The notes: a model not told the origin generated them from the letters alone. A stretch of 64,000 nucleotides of DNA from Chromatiales bacterium (GCA_026982555.1 JALSGT010000062.1:2610-66609); one strand, 5' to 3'. Shown: positions 5,161 through 61,321, counted from the first letter of the stretch. Numbers and translations: made by a program.

Positions 5161-5288
5161 GCTTTTAGAAGTGTGTAACATTATCAAACCAAGTGTTGTA
5201 AACGCAAAGGGCGCAGAGACGCAAAGAGCGCAAAGAAAAACAGCATATATTTTGCGTTCTTTGCGCCTTCGCGAACTTTGCGTTAAAT
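5161..5288. repeat. REP-like imperfect palindrome built from iterated CGCA(A/G)AG units (family 2, copy 1)
   Basis: The sequence gttgtaaacgcaaagggcgcagagacgcaaagagcgcaaag ... tttgcgttctttgcgccttcgcgaactttgcg lies directly after the stop of the 3915..5123 gene. It is homologous, in inverted orientation, to 33181..33290. Confidence 0.6.
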
Positions 5289-22887: not shown

Positions 22888-23161
22888 TTTTGTTGGCGAC
22901 CTTTGAAAGGAGGGTTCCTCAATAATCAGTTTTATTGGCTGTGGATTTCGGTCGGGAAAACCGGTGCCTCATCAAGTTGCTCACGGGAGCTATTCTATTG
23001 CAAAAAAATGGGATAGTACAGAGAACGATTGAGTTGTTCCTGTTGCATATTATCCGTATTATTGCGGGGATGGTGGCAGCGGGTGTCGCCGTATCGATTA
23101 CAGAATGATCAACATTATTTTTGGCACGACTGGCGAGTGATGCAAGCTATATCCGTGGTGT

Positions 23162-23291
23162 TTGAGATTTAGGCTTTTAGTGTGCGTCATATTCATGGCA
23201 AGGCGAAATGACGAGTAATAGCCGGACTATTGCGAGGAGTTTCAACGATGCCATGGAATGAAGAGGGCGTACAATAAAACCTAAATCTCAA
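23162..23291. repeat. Short inverted-repeat element sharing a roughly 40-nt internal module with MITE copies A and C
   Basis: The ends ttgagatttaggc ... acctaaatctcaa are inverted repeats. The internal ggcaaggcgaaatgacgagtaatagccggactattgcgagg is the reverse complement of cgcaatagcgggctattactcctcatcgcgccttgcc in copy A, at about 35/40 matches. Confidence 0.45.
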
Positions 23292-23302
23292 TCGCTACGG
23301 GT

Positions 23303-24487
23303 ATGCATATGATGGGCGCAGGAAAAGCACAGATGCCATCGGGCAGACTGATTATCCTTGGAGCCAGCGTGACTGCGCTGGCCATTGTGCGTAATGCCGC
23401 CGCCATTAATGTGACCCCGGTGTTGCTGGATACCCGTGAGGGCGTTGCTTTTCGGTCTTCGCTGGCACAGTCATTTTATTGTGACGGATATGACGACAGT
23501 GAGGTGTTGCACACGCTGCTGGCGATGGGCCGGGCCGGACAAGGGGCGCTTATCGCAACCAGTGATCGCTGGATTGATTTTCTGGTGGTTAATCGCACTC
23601 AACTGGAACAGGTTTTTGATCCGCTGCTTCAGGCCAGTAATGATGTTTTGTCAATTTGTACTGACAAACTTCGGTTTGCGCACTGGTGTGATGAAAATAA
23701 TGTGGCAGCTCCGCTTTTGCACCAGGTTAATGAACTGGGGTTGTTGTCGGAGGCAGAAGAACATTATCCGCTACTGGTGCGTCCGTACAAAGGCGTGATG
23801 AATTCATCGGCTCATGGGCTTCCCAAGGCGGTAGAAGTGGTTGATCGCACGGCGCTTCAGCAGTGCCTGAAAAAATTTCGTGATGCACAGGTTCAGCCCA
23901 TTGTTACGCAATCGCTGCTCGGTCTTGATTTAACACAATATTCCGTCGGGCTGGCACGCAATGACAAACGAATGGTGAGCTTTGTTGCGGAAAAGTTACG
24001 GCCTGTTGCGAGCCAGTGTGCAGTGGGTTGCTATGTGGCGTTACGTGAAAACCCCGTGGTGGAAAAGTTGGCGCGTGATGTGGCGGATCATCTCGATTAT
24101 TTTGGTATTGCAGAGTTTGAAATTCTGCATGCAAAAAAAACCGGGGAAAATTATTTGATCGAGATTAACGCCCGACCCTGGATTCAATATGAACTCGGCC
24201 TCCGGTCGGGACATAATTTGTTGCAGGTTCTCCTGGATACCCCGGTCTGTGATGTTTCCCCGGAAAAAAAATCCGGTATCTACTGGCTGGATTTCAATGA
24301 CGACCTGTTTAATTGTTTTTCCCGCAGTGTGGGTATCGTGCGCAAAGGGGAGGTCTCTTTGTTTCGCTATTTTGTTTCGTTGCTGCGGGCCAATGCTTTT
24401 GCAAAGTGGCACCTTCGGGATCAACGGCCATTTTGGTGGGCGATGGGTCGCTCAATATCTGACATTTTTACTCGTGGCCGTCGTTGA
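23303..24487 (+). CDS. ATP-grasp domain protein (carboxylate-amine ligase-like)
   Basis: YPLLVRPYKG, GIAEFEIL and YLIEINARPW are typical ATP-grasp motifs. Confidence 0.7.
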   Translation: MHMMGAGKAQMPSGRLIILGASVTALAIVRNAAAINVTPVLLDTREGVAFRSSLAQSFYCDGYDDSEVLHTLLAMGRAGQGALIATSDRWIDFLVVNRTQLEQVFDPLLQASNDVLSICTDKLRFAHWCDENNVAAPLLHQVNELGLLSEAEEHYPLLVRPYKGVMNSSAHGLPKAVEVVDRTALQQCLKKFRDAQVQPIVTQSLLGLDLTQYSVGLARNDKRMVSFVAEKLRPVASQCAVGCYVALRENPVVEKLARDVADHLDYFGIAEFEILHAKKTGENYLIEINARPWIQYELGLRSGHNLLQVLLDTPVCDVSPEKKSGIYWLDFNDDLFNCFSRSVGIVRKGEVSLFRYFVSLLRANAFAKWHLRDQRPFWWAMGRSISDIFTRGRR

Positions 24488-33180: not shown

Positions 33181-33290
33181 TTTAGCGCAAAGTTTTTAGT
33201 GTTTTTCTCCTCTGCGCCCTTTGCGTCTTTGCGACCTCTGCGTTTACAACACGTTACTTGTTATTACCACGACAGCATAACCTCTAAAGA
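33181..33290. repeat. REP-like element of CGCA(A/G)AG iterations (family 2, copy 2, inverted relative to copy 1)
   Basis: The reverse complement reads gtgttgtaaacgcagaggtcgcaaagacgcaaagggcgcagag ... aactttgcgctaaa and aligns along its length with 5161..5288. It begins 2 nt after the MFS stop. Confidence 0.6.
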
Positions 33291-33854: not shown

Positions 33855-33924
33855 TCATTCATTTTCGTTGTATACAGTTAAATAGAAACCCGTCAGCTTG
33901 TCTACGGTCTCTCTGGTAAATAAT

Positions 33925-34159
33925 CCTAGATTCCGCAGTTGACCGCTTCGAGGATGTATTAACATTTTGATAAATAGCTGGTTTGGTGGTTTTGGCGCAT
34001 TCACCTGGTTGAGTGAGTTGCTACGACCTGTATAGCACGTTGCCTTTTGCGCCTAGCCGCGTTGCGCATCGTCGCAATAGCGGGCTATTACTCCTCATCG
34101 CGCCTTGCCAGCCACAAAATTCAACGCACGCTACAGGCCATTCAACTGCGGCATCCAGG
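33925..34159. mobile_element. MITE-like non-autonomous element, copy A (235 bp)
   Basis: Terminal inverted repeats CCTAGATTCCGCAGTTGA ... TCAACTGCGGCATCCAGG, flanked by the direct repeat ATAAT on both sides (33920-33924 and 34160-34164). No ORF. Homologous over its full length to 52442..52639 and 60953..61185. Confidence 0.72.
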
Positions 34160-34201
34160 ATAATACCTGTTGCTAATCATCATTTTGTATAGACGGGTGG
34201 T

Positions 34202-43280: not shown

Positions 43281-46200
43281 ATGGTGGTAAGGCTAGATAG
43301 AAGTAGACTGTATTGCGGTGCGATTGTCGCACTGTTCTTATTGATCAGCGTGAGCACAGCACAGGCAATGTCATTTACATCAGATGATTTTAGTTCCTCT
43401 TCTCTGGACGCATCATTGTGGACCGTAGTTGATCCCCGTGGTGACAGTACACTCCAGTTAAACGGTACCCAGTTAACTATTTCCGTACCCGATGGCCTGA
43501 GCCATGATCTCTGGGAAACCGATCAGAATGCTGTTCGTGTTTTGCAGAATATTGACGATACCGATTTTGAGATTGAAATAAAGTTTGAATCGAACCTGAG
43601 CCAACGATTTCAGGTTCAGGGGTTATTTGTTGAGCAGGATGATCAAAATTTTCTGCGGTTCGATTTTTATTATGATGGTGCTGTTCTTCGTGTTTTTGCG
43701 GCGAGTTTCATTGCTGGAATCCCTACGATTCAACATGAGGCAATCATTACAAATGGCTCGCCGCTATACCTGCGCGTTCAACGGGCAGGGGACCAGTGGA
43801 CGCAGTTTTATTCCTATGATGGTACTAACTGGAATCAGGGCGCGGCATTTTCACACCCGTTGCTTGTCACAAGAGCTGGTCCCTTTGCGGGTAACGCTGG
43901 CAGCCCCGCTCCCGCGTTTACCGCAGTGGTTGATTATGCTTTCAATACCGCGTCCCCGATTATTTTTGAAGATGCAAACGATCCTCTCGATACTATGCCT
44001 CCGTCTATTTCAGATATTGCGATACAGGAAGGCCCGACGCGGGCCCGGGTAAGCTGGTCAACGGATGAGCCGACAATAGGGGCGGTTGAGTATGGCACAA
44101 CGGCCAGCTTTGAGCTTGGGCAGGTTGCCACCGTATCAGGCGGCCAGCAATTTGATGTTTTGCTCGATAATCTCTTACCGGACACAACTTACTATTTCCG
44201 GATTACATCGGAGGATGCCAATGGCAATACCCGGCAGTCAGAGGCATCGCAGTTTGTGACCGCAACTGATGCAGTGCCGCCTGGCCCTTTGATAGACGTA
44301 TGGTATGGTCCAAATCAGCGATTTGGGAATCTGGGTACGCCTCAGCGCTGGGTCAATATTGTGGGTAAAGTGACAGATCCAAATGGCGTGAAATCCCTGT
44401 CCTATCGCGTCAACGGTCAACCTGCCCGACAGCTTTCAATGGGGCCTGATGAAAATCGTTTACATTCTTTAGGCGATTTCAATGCTGAAATCAATGCAGT
44501 TGGGCCGGATGCCGAGTTGAATGTCGGTTTGAATACTGTTGAAATTACGGCGGTGGATAATCTCGATTATTCCACCGTTGAAGTTGTTACTGTGGAATTC
44601 AGCAATAATACTGTTTGGTCACTGCCATATGCTGTCGATTGGTCAAGTGTTACGCAGCCCTGGGATGCGGTTCAAATTGTCGATGGGCTTTGGGATATAC
44701 AAGGTTCTGAAGCCCGGCCTTTGGAACTGGGCTACGACAGGCTGATTGCCATTGGTGATATGTCCTGGACGGATTATGAAATTACCGTGCCGTTTACTGT
44801 GCATGGACTTGAGCCGGGTTATGTTTACGCTGGCCCCTCATTCAGTCCGGGAATCGGTGTTTTATTACGGTGGAGCGGACACTTTGACTGGAATGGCGCG
44901 CAACCTAATACGGGCTGGTGGTCATTTGGCGGGTTTGGGTGGTATCGCTGGAGACAGCCATCTGCGGGTGGTGAGCGTTTTCAAATCATGGGCAATGATG
45001 GCAGTATCATTGCGGATCGCGCTGAATCAAATTTCCCGTTCGGTGTTCCTCATGTTCTCAAGATGAGAGTAGAAACGCCGCCTAACGAAGGCAGCATATA
45101 CAGTCTCAAGATGTGGGAGCAGGCGCAACCTGAGCCGGCGGGATGGGATCTTGTCTCCCAGGAATTACCCACAGACCCTCAAAGCGGTTCACTGCTTCTG
45201 GTTGCACATCATGTTGACGCAACCTTTGGTAATGTCACGATTGTTCCCGCAGGAGATACGACAGGGCCCACGAACAGCAATATTCAGGTGACCAGCTCAG
45301 AAACAGTGGCGACCATTAGTTGGGTGACGAATGAGCCAGCAGCGGTGTCTCTGGCGTATGGTGTTACCAGTAATTATGAATTGGGAACGGTCTCCGACCC
45401 TGCTCTGAATACCAGCCACTCCGTCGAGCTTACCGGGTTAAGCTCTGCTACCGCCTACCAATTCCAGCTGACGGCGACGGATGAAACCGGGAACAGCAGC
45501 AGTTCCGTGAACAGGATTTTTGCCACTTCGGGCGTGATTCCACCTGGCCCGCAATCGGATTATTTTAATGCCGCGACACTGGATGCCCGCTGGACCACAG
45601 TAGACCCGCTGAATGATAACAATGTCACACTGACCGGCACCCAGGTTGCACTGAATATTGTTGGTGGCCCATCGCATGATGTGTGGGCCTCAGGCAACGA
45701 TACCTTGCGTTTGATGCAAGATGTCCTGGACCAGGATTTTATGGCGGAAGTGAAATTTGACTCTCTGCCAACTCAGCAGTATCAGATACAAGGGATACTG
45801 GTTGAGCAGGACAATGATAATTTCCTGCGCTTTGATTATTTTAGTGATGGAACAGACCTGCGGATATTTTCGGCCAGCTTTGTCAACGGGGTACCGACGG
45901 TGCGAGTGGACGATGTTGTATCATTAAGTGCGCCGATGTATCTGCGTGTAGTACGAGTGAGTGACACCTGGATATTGTTGTACAGCGGGGATGGCGTGAG
46001 CTGGACAGCGGCGGGAAGTTATATGCATAGCTTGCAGATGAATACCATGGGTATATTTGCTGGCAATGCACAGGCAGGTAATGCACCTGCCTATACTGCA
46101 CTGGTGGATTATTTTTTGACGGATGTTGAAGCACCGATTCCGGATACCACCCCGCCACTGATTGATAATATTGTGGTGGACAGTGCGGGTGAAGAAGCAA

Positions 46201-49200
46201 CACTGAGCTGGATAACGGATGAACCTGCTGACAGTCAGGTTATGTACGGCACGGCACCCGGGACGTATGAACTGGGTACCGTATCGAGCGCGACACTGAC
46301 ACAGAACCACAGTATTACCCTGACGGGACTGACTCTCGGCACTGTGTATTACTACCAGGTGAGTAGCAGTGATGCGGACAACAATACTGGTAGCAGCGTT
46401 GATCTTAATTTCCTTGCGGAAGATCTGACAGCACCGACAATCAGCGATGTTCAAATTGTGAGAGTGGATAGCAGTGCGACCATCAGTTGGGTCACCAATG
46501 AACCTGCCGACAGTATGCTCGACTATGGCGAGACCACTGCCTATGAGCTGGGTACGGTTTCGAGTGCTGCAGGTACCAGTCACTCTGTTGTGCTTAACGG
46601 ATTGACGCCAGGTGTCATGTATTATTTCCAGCTTACGGCGACCGATAGCAGCAATAACAGCGGCAGTTTATCGAATCAGGCATTTTTAATGTTTGGGCCA
46701 CAATCAGATGACTTTAATGCCGCAACACTGGATGCCCGCTGGATCACGGTAGACCCGCTGGGTGATAACAGTGTTGCATTGACGGGCAGTCAGCTTGAGT
46801 TGAATGTTACCGGCGGTCAGCCGCACGATGTGTGGACTTCGGGCAACGATGCCTTGCGTTTAATGCAAACAGTGGTAGATCAGGACTTTGTGGTGGAAGT
46901 AAAGTTTGATTCTCTGCCAACTCAGCGATATCAGATACAAGGCATTCTGGTTGAGCAGGACAATGGTAATTTCCTGCGTTTTGATTATCTGAGTGATGGC
47001 ACGGACCTGCGGATATTTTCGGCCAGTTTTGCCAATGGAGTGCCGACAGCGCAAATAAATAATATTGTGTCGTTGGGTGTACCTCTGTATTTACGTGTGG
47101 AACGAGTGAGTGATACCTGGACACTGTCTCACAGTGAGGATGGTGCGAACTGGACAGTGGCTGGAAGCTATGTACACAGTCTGCAAGTGAATACTATCGG
47201 TGTGTTTGCGGGTAACACTGGCGGGAGTGGTTCCCCGGCCTACACCGCACTGGTGGACTCTTTTGTGACGAATGCGGTGGTACCTGTCCCGGATACGACT
47301 GCGCCACTGATTGATAATGTTATGGTGGATCGTGCGGGTGAGGAAGCAACGTTGAGCTGGACAACGGATGAACCTGCTGACAGTCAGGTCATGTATGGCA
47401 CGGCACCGGGGACATATGAACTGGGTACCGTATCGAGTGCGGCGTTAACACAAAACCATAGCATTACCTTGACGGGGCTGATCCCCGGCACCGTGTATTA
47501 CTACCAGCTGAGCAGTCGTGATGCGAACAACAACACCGGCAGCAGTGCCGATCTTAATTTCCTGGCGGAAGACCTGGTGCCGCCGACGATCAGTGATGTT
47601 CAGGTTACGAGAGCTGACAGCAGTGCAACCATCAGCTGGATCACAAACGAACCCGCCAGTAGTGTGCTTGAGTATGGCGAGACTAATGCCTACGAGCTGG
47701 GCTCAGTTTCGAGTGGCAGCACAGGTACCAGTCACTCTGTTGTGCTGAGTGGGTTAACGTCTGATGTTATGTATTATTTCCAGCTCACGGCGACTGATGG
47801 CAACAATAATAGCAACAGTCTGTCGAATCAGACATTTATGATGTCCGGGGTACAATCGGATGACTTTAACACGACGATATTGGATTCCCGCTGGACCACG
47901 ATAGACCCGCTGGGCGATAACAGTGTTGCATTAACGGGCAGTCAGCTTGAGCTGAGTGTCGCGGGTGGTCAGCCGCATGATGTGTGGATCTCGGGCAACA
48001 ATGCTTTGCGTTTAATGCAAACCGTGGTGGACCAGGATTTTGTGGCGGAAGTGAAGTTTGATTCTCTGCCGACCCAGCGATATCAGATACAAGGCATTCT
48101 GGTTGAGCAGGACAATGGTAATTTCCTGCGCTTTGATTATATTAGTGACGGCACGGACCTGCGGATATTTTCGGCCAGCTTTGTTGATGGTGTACCTACG
48201 TCACGGGTTTACGATGTTGTGTCACCGGGTCTGCCACTGTATTTACGTGTGGAGCGGGTGGGGGACACCTGGACGCTGTCGTATAGCGGGGACGCTGTGA
48301 ACTGGACGATAGCTGTCAGTTATGTACACAGCCTGCAAGTGAATGCCATCGGCGTGTTTGCAGGTAACACCGGAGGGAGTGGTTCTCCTGCTTACACGGC
48401 ACTGGTGGATTATTTTCTTACGAATGCCACAGCCTTTGTTCTGGATACGATTCCACCAGTGATCGGCGATATTATGGTGGACAGTGTGGGCGAAGAAGCA
48501 ACACTGAGCTGGACAACGAATGAACCGGCAAACAGTCAGGTCATGTACGGCACGGCACCGGGGACATATGAACTGGGTACCGTATCAAGTGCGGCGTTAA
48601 CACAAAATCACAGCATTACCCTGACGGGACTGACCCCCGGTACCGTGTATTACTACCAGCTGAGCAGCAGTGATGCAGACAACAACACCGGTAGTAGTGC
48701 CGATCTTAATTTCCTTGTGGAAGACCTGACGGCACCGGTGATCAGTAATGTTCAAGTCGTGAGAACGGCGGCCAGTGTGACCATCAGCTGGGTCACCAAT
48801 GAATCCGCCAGTAGTGTGCTTGAGTATGGCGAGACTAATGCCTACGAGCTGGGCTCAGTTTCGAGTGGCAGCACAGGCACCAGTCACTCTGTTGTACTGA
48901 GTGGGCTAACGCCTGACGTTGTGTACTATTTACAGATCACGGCAACTGACAACAGCAATAACAGCAGTTTAGTGAATCAGACGTTTTTAATATCGGACTC
49001 ACAATCGGATGATTTTAACACCACAATATTGGATGCCCGCTGGACCGTGGTGGATCCGCTGGGTGATGGCAGTGTTGGTCTGACGGGCAGCCAGCTTGAA
49101 CTGAATGTCCCCGGTGGTCAGTCTCACGATGCATGGACCGCAGGTAACGATACATTACGTTTAATGCAAAATGTCGAGGACCAGGATTTTGTGGCGGAAG

Positions 49201-49589
49201 TGAAGTTTGACTCCCTGCCAACCCGGCGATATCAGATACAAGGCATTCTGGTTGAGCAGGATAATGGTAACTTCCTGCGTTTTGATTATATTAGTGACGG
49301 CACGAGCCTGCGGATATTTTCGGCCAGTTTTGTGGATGGAGTACCCACGTCACGGGTTTACGATGTTGTGTCGTTGGACGCACCGTTGTATCTGCGTGTG
49401 GAGCGGGTGGGTGATACCTGGACATTGTCGCACAGTGGGGATGGTGTGAGCTGGACGGTGGCCGTGAGTTATGTGCATAGCCTGCAGGTGAATGCCATTG
49501 GTGTATTTGCCGGTAACACATGGGGCGCTGGTTCACCTGCCCACACAGCACTGGTAGACTATTTTACGACGGATGCAGTTGCGCAGTAA
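43281..49589 (+). CDS. Giant secreted multidomain protein (2102 aa): 5 ConA-like lectin/glucanase-type modules, 1 divergent jelly-roll region and about 8 FN3-like modules
   Basis: Signal peptide ...IVALFLLISVSTAQA|MS. Recurring roughly 200-aa module SDDF..(L)D.RW..VDP.GD ... HD.W ... RL.Q ... DF..EVKFDS ... YQIQGILVEQD..NFLRFDY ... LRIFSA ... LYLRV.R.GD.W ... S.DG..W ... FAGN ... YTALVDYF. Recurring FN3-like module (A)TISWVTNEPA.S ... YG ... YELG.VSS ... HS(I/V).L.GL.P..VYY(Y/F)Q(L/V). No C-terminal PEP-CTERM, LPXTG or T9SS-like tag is visible. Confidence 0.85.
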   Translation: MVVRLDRSRLYCGAIVALFLLISVSTAQAMSFTSDDFSSSSLDASLWTVVDPRGDSTLQLNGTQLTISVPDGLSHDLWETDQNAVRVLQNIDDTDFEIEIKFESNLSQRFQVQGLFVEQDDQNFLRFDFYYDGAVLRVFAASFIAGIPTIQHEAIITNGSPLYLRVQRAGDQWTQFYSYDGTNWNQGAAFSHPLLVTRAGPFAGNAGSPAPAFTAVVDYAFNTASPIIFEDANDPLDTMPPSISDIAIQEGPTRARVSWSTDEPTIGAVEYGTTASFELGQVATVSGGQQFDVLLDNLLPDTTYYFRITSEDANGNTRQSEASQFVTATDAVPPGPLIDVWYGPNQRFGNLGTPQRWVNIVGKVTDPNGVKSLSYRVNGQPARQLSMGPDENRLHSLGDFNAEINAVGPDAELNVGLNTVEITAVDNLDYSTVEVVTVEFSNNTVWSLPYAVDWSSVTQPWDAVQIVDGLWDIQGSEARPLELGYDRLIAIGDMSWTDYEITVPFTVHGLEPGYVYAGPSFSPGIGVLLRWSGHFDWNGAQPNTGWWSFGGFGWYRWRQPSAGGERFQIMGNDGSIIADRAESNFPFGVPHVLKMRVETPPNEGSIYSLKMWEQAQPEPAGWDLVSQELPTDPQSGSLLLVAHHVDATFGNVTIVPAGDTTGPTNSNIQVTSSETVATISWVTNEPAAVSLAYGVTSNYELGTVSDPALNTSHSVELTGLSSATAYQFQLTATDETGNSSSSVNRIFATSGVIPPGPQSDYFNAATLDARWTTVDPLNDNNVTLTGTQVALNIVGGPSHDVWASGNDTLRLMQDVLDQDFMAEVKFDSLPTQQYQIQGILVEQDNDNFLRFDYFSDGTDLRIFSASFVNGVPTVRVDDVVSLSAPMYLRVVRVSDTWILLYSGDGVSWTAAGSYMHSLQMNTMGIFAGNAQAGNAPAYTALVDYFLTDVEAPIPDTTPPLIDNIVVDSAGEEATLSWITDEPADSQVMYGTAPGTYELGTVSSATLTQNHSITLTGLTLGTVYYYQVSSSDADNNTGSSVDLNFLAEDLTAPTISDVQIVRVDSSATISWVTNEPADSMLDYGETTAYELGTVSSAAGTSHSVVLNGLTPGVMYYFQLTATDSSNNSGSLSNQAFLMFGPQSDDFNAATLDARWITVDPLGDNSVALTGSQLELNVTGGQPHDVWTSGNDALRLMQTVVDQDFVVEVKFDSLPTQRYQIQGILVEQDNGNFLRFDYLSDGTDLRIFSASFANGVPTAQINNIVSLGVPLYLRVERVSDTWTLSHSEDGANWTVAGSYVHSLQVNTIGVFAGNTGGSGSPAYTALVDSFVTNAVVPVPDTTAPLIDNVMVDRAGEEATLSWTTDEPADSQVMYGTAPGTYELGTVSSAALTQNHSITLTGLIPGTVYYYQLSSRDANNNTGSSADLNFLAEDLVPPTISDVQVTRADSSATISWITNEPASSVLEYGETNAYELGSVSSGSTGTSHSVVLSGLTSDVMYYFQLTATDGNNNSNSLSNQTFMMSGVQSDDFNTTILDSRWTTIDPLGDNSVALTGSQLELSVAGGQPHDVWISGNNALRLMQTVVDQDFVAEVKFDSLPTQRYQIQGILVEQDNGNFLRFDYISDGTDLRIFSASFVDGVPTSRVYDVVSPGLPLYLRVERVGDTWTLSYSGDAVNWTIAVSYVHSLQVNAIGVFAGNTGGSGSPAYTALVDYFLTNATAFVLDTIPPVIGDIMVDSVGEEATLSWTTNEPANSQVMYGTAPGTYELGTVSSAALTQNHSITLTGLTPGTVYYYQLSSSDADNNTGSSADLNFLVEDLTAPVISNVQVVRTAASVTISWVTNESASSVLEYGETNAYELGSVSSGSTGTSHSVVLSGLTPDVVYYLQITATDNSNNSSLVNQTFLISDSQSDDFNTTILDARWTVVDPLGDGSVGLTGSQLELNVPGGQSHDAWTAGNDTLRLMQNVEDQDFVAEVKFDSLPTRRYQIQGILVEQDNGNFLRFDYISDGTSLRIFSASFVDGVPTSRVYDVVSLDAPLYLRVERVGDTWTLSHSGDGVSWTVAVSYVHSLQVNAIGVFAGNTWGAGSPAHTALVDYFTTDAVAQ
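45552..49589 (+). repeat. In-frame tandem DNA repeat, period 1149-1152 bp, about 3.5 copies, inside the giant gene
   Basis: Unit starts caatc(g/a)gat(t/g)a(t/c)tttaa at 45552, 46701, 47853 and 49002. Long stretches are near-identical between copies, for example 47670-47760 vs 48823-48913 and 46901-47040 vs 48060-48200, which differ at only scattered positions. Confidence 0.88.
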
Positions 49590-52158: not shown

Positions 52159-52441
52159 TGATACCCCGGCATGAGATTTAAACCACCCGCATTAGATTAG
52201 TACAACACTGCGCCAGAGACCTCTGGGGAACGGCATGAGTTGTAAGTGAAAAAACCGCACAGCATACCAAATAGATCACTATTTTACTTTGTTTGTGTGA
52301 GGTGCAAAGTACCACTAACAGATTGACACGTACTTGGATTATTATTTTGTACTAGGCCCGAGTTTAGGCTGGCTTTGAGTGACAATTTGAAAATGGGGTC
52401 TACACGGGAAAATCACAGGTTTTTGGTCGGCGATGGTTAAA

Positions 52442-52639
52442 CCTAAATTCCGCAGTTGACCGCTTCGAGGATGTATTCACATTTTGATAAATCGCTTGCT
52501 GGGTGGTTTTGGCGCATTCATTGGTTGAATGAGTCGCGACGACCTGTATAGCACGTTGCCTTTTGCGTCTGGCCGCGTCGCGCCTTGCCAGCCACAAAAT
52601 TCAACGCACTCTACAGGCCGTTCAACTGCGGAATCTAGG
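52442..52639. mobile_element. MITE-like element, copy B (198 bp; lacks a roughly 35-bp internal module)
   Basis: TIRs CCTAAATTCCGCAGTTGA ... TCAACTGCGGAATCTAGG flanked by the direct repeat TTAAA (52437-52441 and 52640-52644). It lies in the divergent wzx / rfbF intergenic region. Confidence 0.75.
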
Positions 52640-52957
52640 TTAAATGACGGTCATGAATTACTGAATTGTGGTCATGAGTTACACAAGCGGTTGGAACGCA
52701 AATGAGAAAAGGCCGGCAAGGGAGAAAGTCGGGCTGGCTATGTTATCATTGCCCCCGAAAACGGGGTCCCACCCTGTGAAGAAATGGAGCCGATTTTAAG
52801 CTCCCGGCATATAGAGCTGCTGAGCATTCCACTGTTGGTGTAAGCCAAGGTAAGATGGCGACCTCCGGCTGTTGTTGTGTGGCGGAGCAGGGTATAAGGC
52901 CGTGCCGGAGTTGTGGGTGCATTGGATGACAGAAAACAAGATAACTTGGAGAATTAT

Positions 52958-60928: not shown

Positions 60929-60952
60929 GATTTTGGCCGGTTAATATTTAAA

Positions 60953-61185
60953 CCTAAATCCAGCAGTTGATCGCTTAGAGGATGTAATGACACATTGATA
61001 AGCATTATATTTTGAGTTTTTGTTGGGTTCACTGGTTGGGTGGGTTGCTATGGTCGGTATAGCACGTTGCCTTTTGCGTCTGGCCGCGTTGCGAATCGAC
61101 GCAATAGCGGGCTATTACTTCTCTAGCATCTTGTCAGCCACAACATTCAACGTACTCTACCGGCCATTCCGTCGCAGATTTTAGG
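60953..61185. mobile_element. MITE-like element, copy C (233 bp, most diverged)
   Basis: TIRs CCTAAATCCAGCAGTTGA ... CCGTCGCAGATTTTAGG flanked by the direct repeat TTAAA (60948-60952 and 61186-61190). It lies between a divergent GT gene and a protease gene. Confidence 0.7.
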
Positions 61186-61321
61186 TTAAATGCGAATATG
61201 ATGGGGCAATCATGTTCTGCTTGGTGTTTTCGGTCAACGTGTTTGTGAAATGGAGGTTGTTGTGAAAGAAAAAAAGGATGCTTTTGAAGGTGATCGTTTG
61301 GCATTCCGGTGCCCTTCGAGA

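Follow-up and report, generated by a model that had tools for sequence, protein, structure and literature searches.

Three short non-coding sequences in a 64-kb stretch of DNA of an uncultured gammaproteobacterium (hereafter, the window) are very probably non-autonomous MITE copies, derived from and mobilised by an insertion sequence of the IS1380 family. In the mechanism proposed here, an IS1380-type DDE transposase, supplied in trans and presumably acting from elsewhere in the genome or population, would recognise TIRs of 18–23 bp, CCTA(G/A)ATTCCGCAGTTGA(CCGCT), and would insert the element at an AT-rich WTNAW target by means of a 5-bp staggered cut, the repair of which would leave the 5-bp direct repeats. 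A MITE family of mobile origin had already been proposed in the initial annotation of this DNA, and the TIRs, the duplications, the number of copies and the polymorphism of copy A were all in agreement with it. The coordinates of the three copies and of their parts are collected in the table.

Table. Positions of the three MITE copies (A, B and C) and of their parts in the window; in the plus orientation, the transposase-proximal (IRL-like) end of an element comes first and its IRR-like end last.
Feature	Position	Strand	Sequence or basis
Left target-site duplication, copy A	33920–33924		ATAAT; this 5-mer is single in the L122 empty site
Copy A	33925–34159 (235 bp)	+	TIRs, homology, absence from relatives
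Left TIR, copy A	33925–33942	+	CCTAGATTCCGCAGTTGA; family conservation reaches position 23 (...CCGCT)
Small hairpin relic, copy A	34001–34017	+	TCAC-CTGGTTGA-GTGA
Long imperfect hairpin (~120 nt), copy A	34023–34141	-	Folding energy and family alignment
Right TIR, copy A	34142–34159	-	CCTGGATGCCGCAGTTGA on the minus strand, 2 mismatches
Right target-site duplication, copy A	34160–34164		ATAAT
Left target-site duplication, copy B	52437–52441		TTAAA
Copy B	52442–52639 (198 bp)	+	Both TIRs perfect
Right target-site duplication, copy B	52640–52644		TTAAA
Left target-site duplication, copy C	60948–60952		TTAAA
Copy C	60953–61185 (233 bp)	+	Degenerate TIRs: left CCTAAATCCAGCAGTTGA, right ...TTCCGTCGCAGATTTTAGG
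Right target-site duplication, copy C	61186–61190		TTAAA

The members of the family terminated in the TIR sequence given above, also written CCTA(G/A)ATTCCGCAGTTGACCGCT, and in its reverse complement. The 13-mer core of the TIR was found ten times in the window, compared with 2.1 matches expected from shuffles, and an independent repeat search of the window also recovered the three-copy family. No further full copies were detected in the window by a profile search built from the copies. Copy A was 77% identical to copy B, when the 36-bp internal deletion of the latter was counted, and 80% identical to copy C. This deletion, which removes the tip of the long hairpin, is the main difference between copy B and the other two. 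All three copies were non-coding and, at 198–235 bp, smaller than the approximately 500 bp taken as the upper size of a MITE. Hence the coordinates, the repeat search and the shuffles agreed with the initial description of three homologous non-coding elements with TIRs and exact 5-bp flanks. Since the TIRs of copy C are clearly degenerate, above all in the right arm, this copy is probably no longer mobilisable.

A transposase-encoding element with the same ends was identified in Lacunisphaera (Opitutaceae). This element of 1,516 bp (L094, 4342–5857) carried the TIRs CCTAAATTCCGCAGTTGA and CCTAAAATCCGCAGTTGA, with the same 18-bp end as the MITE, and was flanked by a CTTAT/CTTAT duplication. Its single ORF of 474 aa was assigned by the NCBIfam model “IS1380 family transposase” (NF033539) with 189.7 bits, for a cutoff of 180, and by Pfam to DDE_Tnp_1_4 (7e-30). 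Four more full IS1380 elements, belonging to a related subgroup, were found on a Polaromonas plasmid and on three metagenome or MAG contigs (L120 and L132–L134). Their TIRs were of the type CCTAAATCCGGCAGTT, diverged from that of the MITE, and exact 5-bp duplications (TTAAA, GTTAT and ATCAG) flanked three of them, the flanks of L132 matching at four of the five positions. The homologues of the Lacunisphaera and Polaromonas transposases were very abundant, and the three Polaromonas-type elements fetched carried the diverged TIR. Among the matches listed, no full element other than the verrucomicrobial L094 carried the identical TIR, and the proteobacterial full elements found were those of the diverged type.

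The window itself had been described as devoid of a transposase, and in fact no IS1380 transposase was found there by tblastn. Likewise, none was present in 685 kb of related metagenome loci, and no transposase ORFs were observed beside unpaired TIRs or next to the gammaproteobacterial copies. A transposase gene flanked by the same TIRs was located in Lacunisphaera, and in neither the window nor the gammaproteobacterial loci. The mobilisation in trans suggested in the initial annotation was reinforced by the fact that the same TIR bounds an IS1380 element with a 5-bp duplication of its own. The ends, the length of the duplication and the homology of the left end tie the MITE to the IS1380 family. 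In L094 (4342–4440), L058 and L086, a perfect palindrome, CAACTGCGgCGCAGTTG, was also observed approximately 80 bp inside the transposase-distal end. This palindrome combines two oppositely oriented TIR cores, is part of the sequence that encodes the C-terminus in full IS1380 elements and may be a second, putative transposase-binding site.

The layout of the family was obtained from an alignment of 33 full-length members from many genomes, in which the plus strand of copy A served as the reference. It consisted of the left TIR (positions 1–23), an AT-rich variable stretch of approximately 50 nt, a small hairpin (approximately 77–93), the motif CGCTAC, the long hairpin (approximately 98–218) and the right TIR. 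The consensus of the small hairpin was TTCACCC-N3-5-GGGTGA, followed by (C/T)GCTAC (34019–34024 in copy A). The hairpin TCACC-N-GGTGA was located 77–102 bp from the transposase-proximal end in the MITEs and the full elements alike (83–102 bp in the latter), and in the full IS1380 elements it overlapped the ribosome-binding site and the start codon of the transposase. In L120 and L132–L134 it took the form TCACCAAATGGGTGA at the annotated ATG, and in the Polaromonas-type elements the arrangement was GGAG-TCACC-AAATG-GGTGA, the loop of which contains the annotated ATG. Since this small hairpin is common to the MITE and the full elements, the left ~95 bp of the MITE derive from the IRL end and the translation-initiation region of the parent element.

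The same small hairpin was observed in short non-coding elements of Opitutia, Akkermansia, Paraglaciecola, Endozoicomonas and other genomes, the rest of the interior being unrelated; some of these elements were simple fold-backs with the small hairpin at the tip. One such class, of 163–178 bp, with the same TIR and a near-perfect fold-back ending in TCACC-N-GGTGA, was found in the Gammaproteobacteria MAG CBDDKY01 (L004, L057, L097 and L107), where nested and tandem insertions also occurred (for example, L004 3323–3541). The retention of the hairpin where nothing is encoded suggests a role in cis in transposition, for which it would have been kept, for instance as a putative subterminal binding site. 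To our knowledge, the cis requirements of the IS1380 family are poorly defined. The TIR and the TCACC-N-GGTGA hairpin approximately 80 bp inside it, both conserved in all of the non-coding derivatives, are thus candidate cis-acting sites.

Regarding the gene context, copy A was located 42 bp past the stop codon of an AddA-like helicase-nuclease gene and 70 bp ahead of the gene of a response regulator; the minus strand encodes both. Copy B separates a Wzx-type flippase gene from a nucleotidyl-transferase gene, and copy C a 359-aa ORF from the gene of a trypsin-like protease; both copies lie in divergent intergenic regions of a surface-polysaccharide cluster. When placed on the genes of the window, the copies therefore occupied the positions first assigned to them, the rr/addA junction and the wzx-rfbF and GT-protease divergent gaps. 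An AT-rich target, together with selection against genic insertions, would in any case place the copies at gene boundaries.

It had further been suggested that the copies could donate promoters or terminators to these genes, and this was not sustained by the data: consensus scans detected no sigma-70 promoters and no intrinsic terminators inside copies A, B and C, and the orientation of the elements showed no bias with respect to the flanking genes (six co-directional versus seven anti-directional tandem contexts). These last counts also ruled out that the orientation of the hairpin tracks host transcription. A distance of 24 bp separates copy C from the start codon of the 359-aa minus-strand ORF, upstream of which it lies, so that the promoter of this ORF must be situated inside the element or on its far side. 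Just beyond copy C (61237–61209), a weak match to the promoter consensus did not exceed the chance level. Other repeats were also observed in the window. A 2,102-aa ORF (43281–49589, plus strand), adjoining the polysaccharide genes, contained four tandem units of approximately 1,150 bp (383 aa) with ~80% identity (repeats at 45500–49300). A second family of short repeats of approximately 64–90 bp, ~80% identical and rich in CGCAAAG/GCGCAGAG motifs (GTGTTGTAAACGCAAAGGGCGCAGAGACGCAAAGAGCGCA...), was present at 5182–5245 and, inverted, at 33200–33263, one of them in the convergent gap between the MFS transporter gene and the response-regulator gene. Motifs of the CGCAAAG type also occurred inside verrucomicrobial members of the MITE family (L090 and L027).

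The long hairpin had no counterpart in the full IS elements examined, which have no room for it, and it is therefore specific to the MITE. Its secondary structure was backed by compensatory changes. In an analysis of covariation with 27 members, 25 of the 30 consensus pairs showed double changes, 91.1% of the cells were paired compared with 66.6% in column shuffles (a value reached in 0 of 500) and 29–46% in slid registers, and 194 double-change cells were counted compared with 61 in the shuffles; as the copies share descent, neither these changes nor the mismatches counted below are independent events. The hairpin was also asymmetric between strands. The reverse orientation folded more stably in 29 of the 33 members, by 16 kcal/mol on average, and a comparison of the arms that used no folding energies gave 183 G.U-type mismatches on the reverse strand versus 59 on the other. 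For copy A, the minus-strand RNA reached -60.5 kcal/mol (z -6.3), versus -32.0 kcal/mol (z -0.46) for the plus strand. No Rfam family matched the window at the gathering score, or copy A at E≤1.

This strand asymmetry suggests a constraint on a single-stranded form (RNA or ssDNA) that runs in the IRR-to-IRL direction and is antisense to the start of the ancestral transposase, and the ~120-nt hairpin would then act as a single strand read in that direction. A structured RNA with compensatory changes had been named at the outset as the alternative to a mobile element. Such changes do conserve the hairpin, but alongside mobility and not instead of it, so that the question becomes whether the MITE carries a functional RNA in addition. 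An RNA of this kind, transcribed from the IRR side and regulatory or stabilising in effect, would comprise the ~120-nt hairpin, perhaps joined to the antisense of the region where the transposase starts, and would extend the IS1380 explanation; it might, for instance, restrain the parent transposase as an antisense RNA, as RNA-OUT does for IS10, or be an RNase target within host mRNAs. The compensatory changes, the asymmetry and the restriction of the hairpin to the MITE speak for it. However, the copies contain no promoter-like site, no Rfam family was matched, the tandem contexts showed no orientation bias, and copy B has lost the tip of the hairpin and yet keeps perfect TIRs. Additionally, the shared descent of the copies reduces the weight of the counts, and a role at the DNA level or a strand-biased mutation could also account for the hairpin. 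A functional RNA is hence a minority hypothesis, which we consider unlikely.

Distinctly unlikely is the stronger proposal that the MITE is a cross-phylum vehicle, borne by IS1380, for a conserved strand-specific RNA of ~120 nt that is antisense to the transposase start, regulates the parent transposase or host transcripts and is maintained by selection. If it were true, the family would be an element maintained by selection on its RNA, and more than a passive deletion derivative. A stand-alone imperfect palindrome of 147 bp, homologous to the long hairpin, was also recovered by the profile search elsewhere in the window (23154–23300, plus strand). It lacked the TIRs of the family and a clear duplication and had approximately 20 extra basal pairs (CCGTGGTGTTTGAGATTTAGG...CCTAAATCTCAATCGCTACGG). 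Its plus-strand RNA reached -67.5 kcal/mol (z -9.8), and it ended 3 nt before the ATG of the ORF 23303–24487. This palindrome may be a relic left by rearrangement, or else a hairpin module in its own right.

The spread of the family and its target were analysed in other genomes and in metagenomes. The scan of genome contigs for the TIR used a pattern with 15 specified bases, permissive enough to give many chance matches; real members were among the matches listed, which did not include the window's own genome. The pairing of TIRs in the 117 genome loci listed and in the window gave at least 73 short elements, at least 44 of them with perfect 5-bp duplications. Furthermore, a 21-mer of the window's subfamily led to 82 metagenome loci, which belong to the sample series that also yielded the relatives compared below; in these loci, 59 full-length elements, 54 distinct insertion sites and 46 cases with perfect duplications were counted. 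In all, related elements were observed at more than 100 different sites in other genomes and metagenomes, and near-identical 18-bp ends occurred in genomes of gamma- and betaproteobacteria, of verrucomicrobia and of Fibrobacter. Among the paralogues of copy A that were recovered, the nearest was only 91% identical, so that a very recent burst is not documented, and a distant blastn search of copy A against plasmids gave no match. Several short-read contigs ended 50–140 bp inside MITE or IS termini (L119, Logan SRR7968108; L016; L030; L044), which indicates that the family fragments the assemblies of these organisms. The family thereby breaks short-read assemblies of uncultured sulfur-cycle gammaproteobacteria, and it offers strain-level insertion markers.

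The target consensus was obtained from the 90 perfect 5-bp duplications present among the genome matches listed and the metagenome loci. Position 2 was T in all 90 and position 4 was A in 89; positions 1 and 5 were A or T in 86 and 87, respectively, and the centre was free. At least 20 different 5-mers were represented, and WTNAW fitted 83 of the 90. The near-invariance of T2 and A4 reflects a preference for the target and is not part of the element. The variety of 5-mers, their exact duplication and the many unrelated loci identified the elements as MITEs. These exact pairs, together with the empty site of copy A described below, upheld the initial view that the flanks are genuine duplications of AT-rich targets; since the 5-mers vary among elements, they do not belong to a longer repeat, and with many copies elsewhere and a polymorphic site for copy A the family is not confined to the window.

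The same invariant positions might instead indicate a 3-bp (TNA) duplication, with an element one base longer at each end and a partner other than IS1380. Duplications of 3 bp occur in some IS5-family groups. Most of the duplications are TTNAA or ATNAT, for which both models hold equally, and ATTAT, the target of copy A on the minus strand, is palindromic in this sense, so that its empty site would also be predicted by a 3-bp duplication and an element 1 nt longer at either end. Because such targets are ambiguous, the 5-bp model rests on the 19 of the 90 duplications whose outer positions break the palindrome (ATAAA, TTAAT and CTGAA are examples) and which are nevertheless repeated exactly, and on the full elements, where CTTAT, GTTAT and ATCAG each occur twice. 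Moreover, a 3-bp duplication would need the outer base to vary between copies of one subfamily, and the partner actually found belongs to the IS1380 family, for which 5-bp repeats are documented. A 3-bp duplication is accordingly very unlikely.

The insertion of copy A could be followed directly, by comparison with the loci of AddA relatives from other assemblies, in all of which addA and the response-regulator gene were adjacent. The spacer between these genes was 368 bp in the window, 128 bp in a relative with a 97%-identical AddA (L122/L123) and 127 bp in one at 92% (L124). The difference of 240 bp between the window and L122 corresponds to the 235-bp element plus one 5-mer. The L122 spacer contained a single ATTAT, in ...caacaggtATTATttaccag... 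(longer stretch, ...tagcaacaggtATTATttaccagagag...), and the minus strand of the window read ...tagcaacaggtATTAT-element-ATTATttaccagagag..., with ATTAT on both sides of copy A; the rest of the spacer was otherwise identical. The relatives at 92% and 86% AddA identity also lacked the element at this site, and in a relative at 82% the ATTAT target was kept in a spacer of 265 bp with extra sequence. With the element absent from the relatives at 97%, 92% and 86%, an insertion in the lineage of the window is the parsimonious reading, and copy A has provably been inserted recently. Among named organisms, the nearest AddA proteins, ~50% identical, were those of Thiohalomonas, Sulfurivermis and Kaarinaea. 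A copy in L117, 76% identical to copy A, was rejected as an orthologous insertion because its gene context was different.

The search for empty sites was thus successful for copy A, with an exact site in the 97% relative, and recovered none for copies B and C, for which the metagenome loci matched just the MITE part of both regions. Look-ups of exact proteins returned only the same contig for the response regulator beside copy A and for the epimerase, and no record for the protease.

The precise empty site also bears on whether a transposon is involved at all. The three sequences might be structured ncRNA genes or palindromes of the REP/BIME type, the flanking 5-mers being part of the repeat. 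The covariation of the interior hairpin, the near-invariance of positions 2 and 4 of the flanking 5-mers and the related palindrome without TIRs at 23154–23300 would fit such a reading. It is extremely unlikely, given the precise absence of copy A in close relatives, the exact duplication of each of at least 20 different flanking 5-mers, the identical ends on a transposase-encoding IS with its own duplication, and the lack of an Rfam family; besides, REP elements make no target duplications and have no such TIRs. Readings as a retron, an integron attC site or a group II intron were set aside, since the elements are already explained by their TIRs and 5-bp duplications together with the IS1380 partner.

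An IS1380-derived MITE, as favoured here, can be compared with several known systems. Within the IS1380 family, ISEcp1 has the IRL CCTAGATTCTACGT and AT-rich 5-bp direct repeats (PMC6061673), and IS1247, of 1,672 bp, also has 5-bp direct repeats (PMC3281130). The first nine bases of the ISEcp1 IRL are identical to those of the MITE end, CCTAGATTCCGCAG; AT-rich 5-bp target duplications are shared with ISEcp1, IS1247 and ISPme1, and the full element with the identical TIR passes the IS1380 cutoff. Unlike ISEcp1, the elements of the window are only 198–235 bp long, lack a transposase and contain an interior hairpin that is absent from the full elements examined. ISEcp1 is known for its outward promoter and its one-ended capture of adjacent genes, neither of which was found in the window copies, and the family is medically relevant in that ISEcp1 spreads blaCTX-M.

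The IS1380 transposases have eukaryotic relatives in the piggyBac superfamily, for which they serve as the prokaryotic outgroup (PMC10813416). The resemblance to piggyBac extends to the ends (CCYTA...TARGG) and to a short AT-only palindromic target, TTAA for piggyBac and WTNAW for the MITE; the duplication of piggyBac is, however, of 4 bp and not of 5 bp, and the host of the MITE is bacterial. With the REP/BIME elements, which are mobilised by RAYT tyrosine transposases, the family has in common abundant intergenic palindromes with a strand-specific structure and a GTAG-containing motif (CGCTAC on the opposite strand) adjoining the hairpin. REPs are sequences of 20–40 nt that carry GTAG 5' of the stem and have neither TIRs nor target duplications. 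The MITE is set apart from them by its TIRs, its 5-bp duplications and its ~120-nt hairpin.

The bacterial MITEs that fold into hairpins include ERIC/IRU of enterobacteria, Correia/NEMIS of Neisseria and RUP/BOX of pneumococci, all of them short multi-copy sequences of intergenic regions that encode nothing, carry TIRs and target duplications and form a stable hairpin once transcribed. Other transposases or targets are associated with those families (TA duplications, for example), and their sequences show no similarity to the window copies. In those families the paired arms of the whole element essentially make up the hairpin, whereas here a separate, asymmetrically placed hairpin of ~120 nt is enclosed by an IS-derived left end on one side and the right TIR on the other. 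The literature searched contained no account of a MITE derived from IS1380 or of this terminal sequence, which is not proof of novelty. The elements are most fittingly regarded as a new family within the well-known MITE kind, with two notable features: the conserved subterminal hairpin, which the parent elements share, and the MITE-specific, strand-asymmetric long hairpin.
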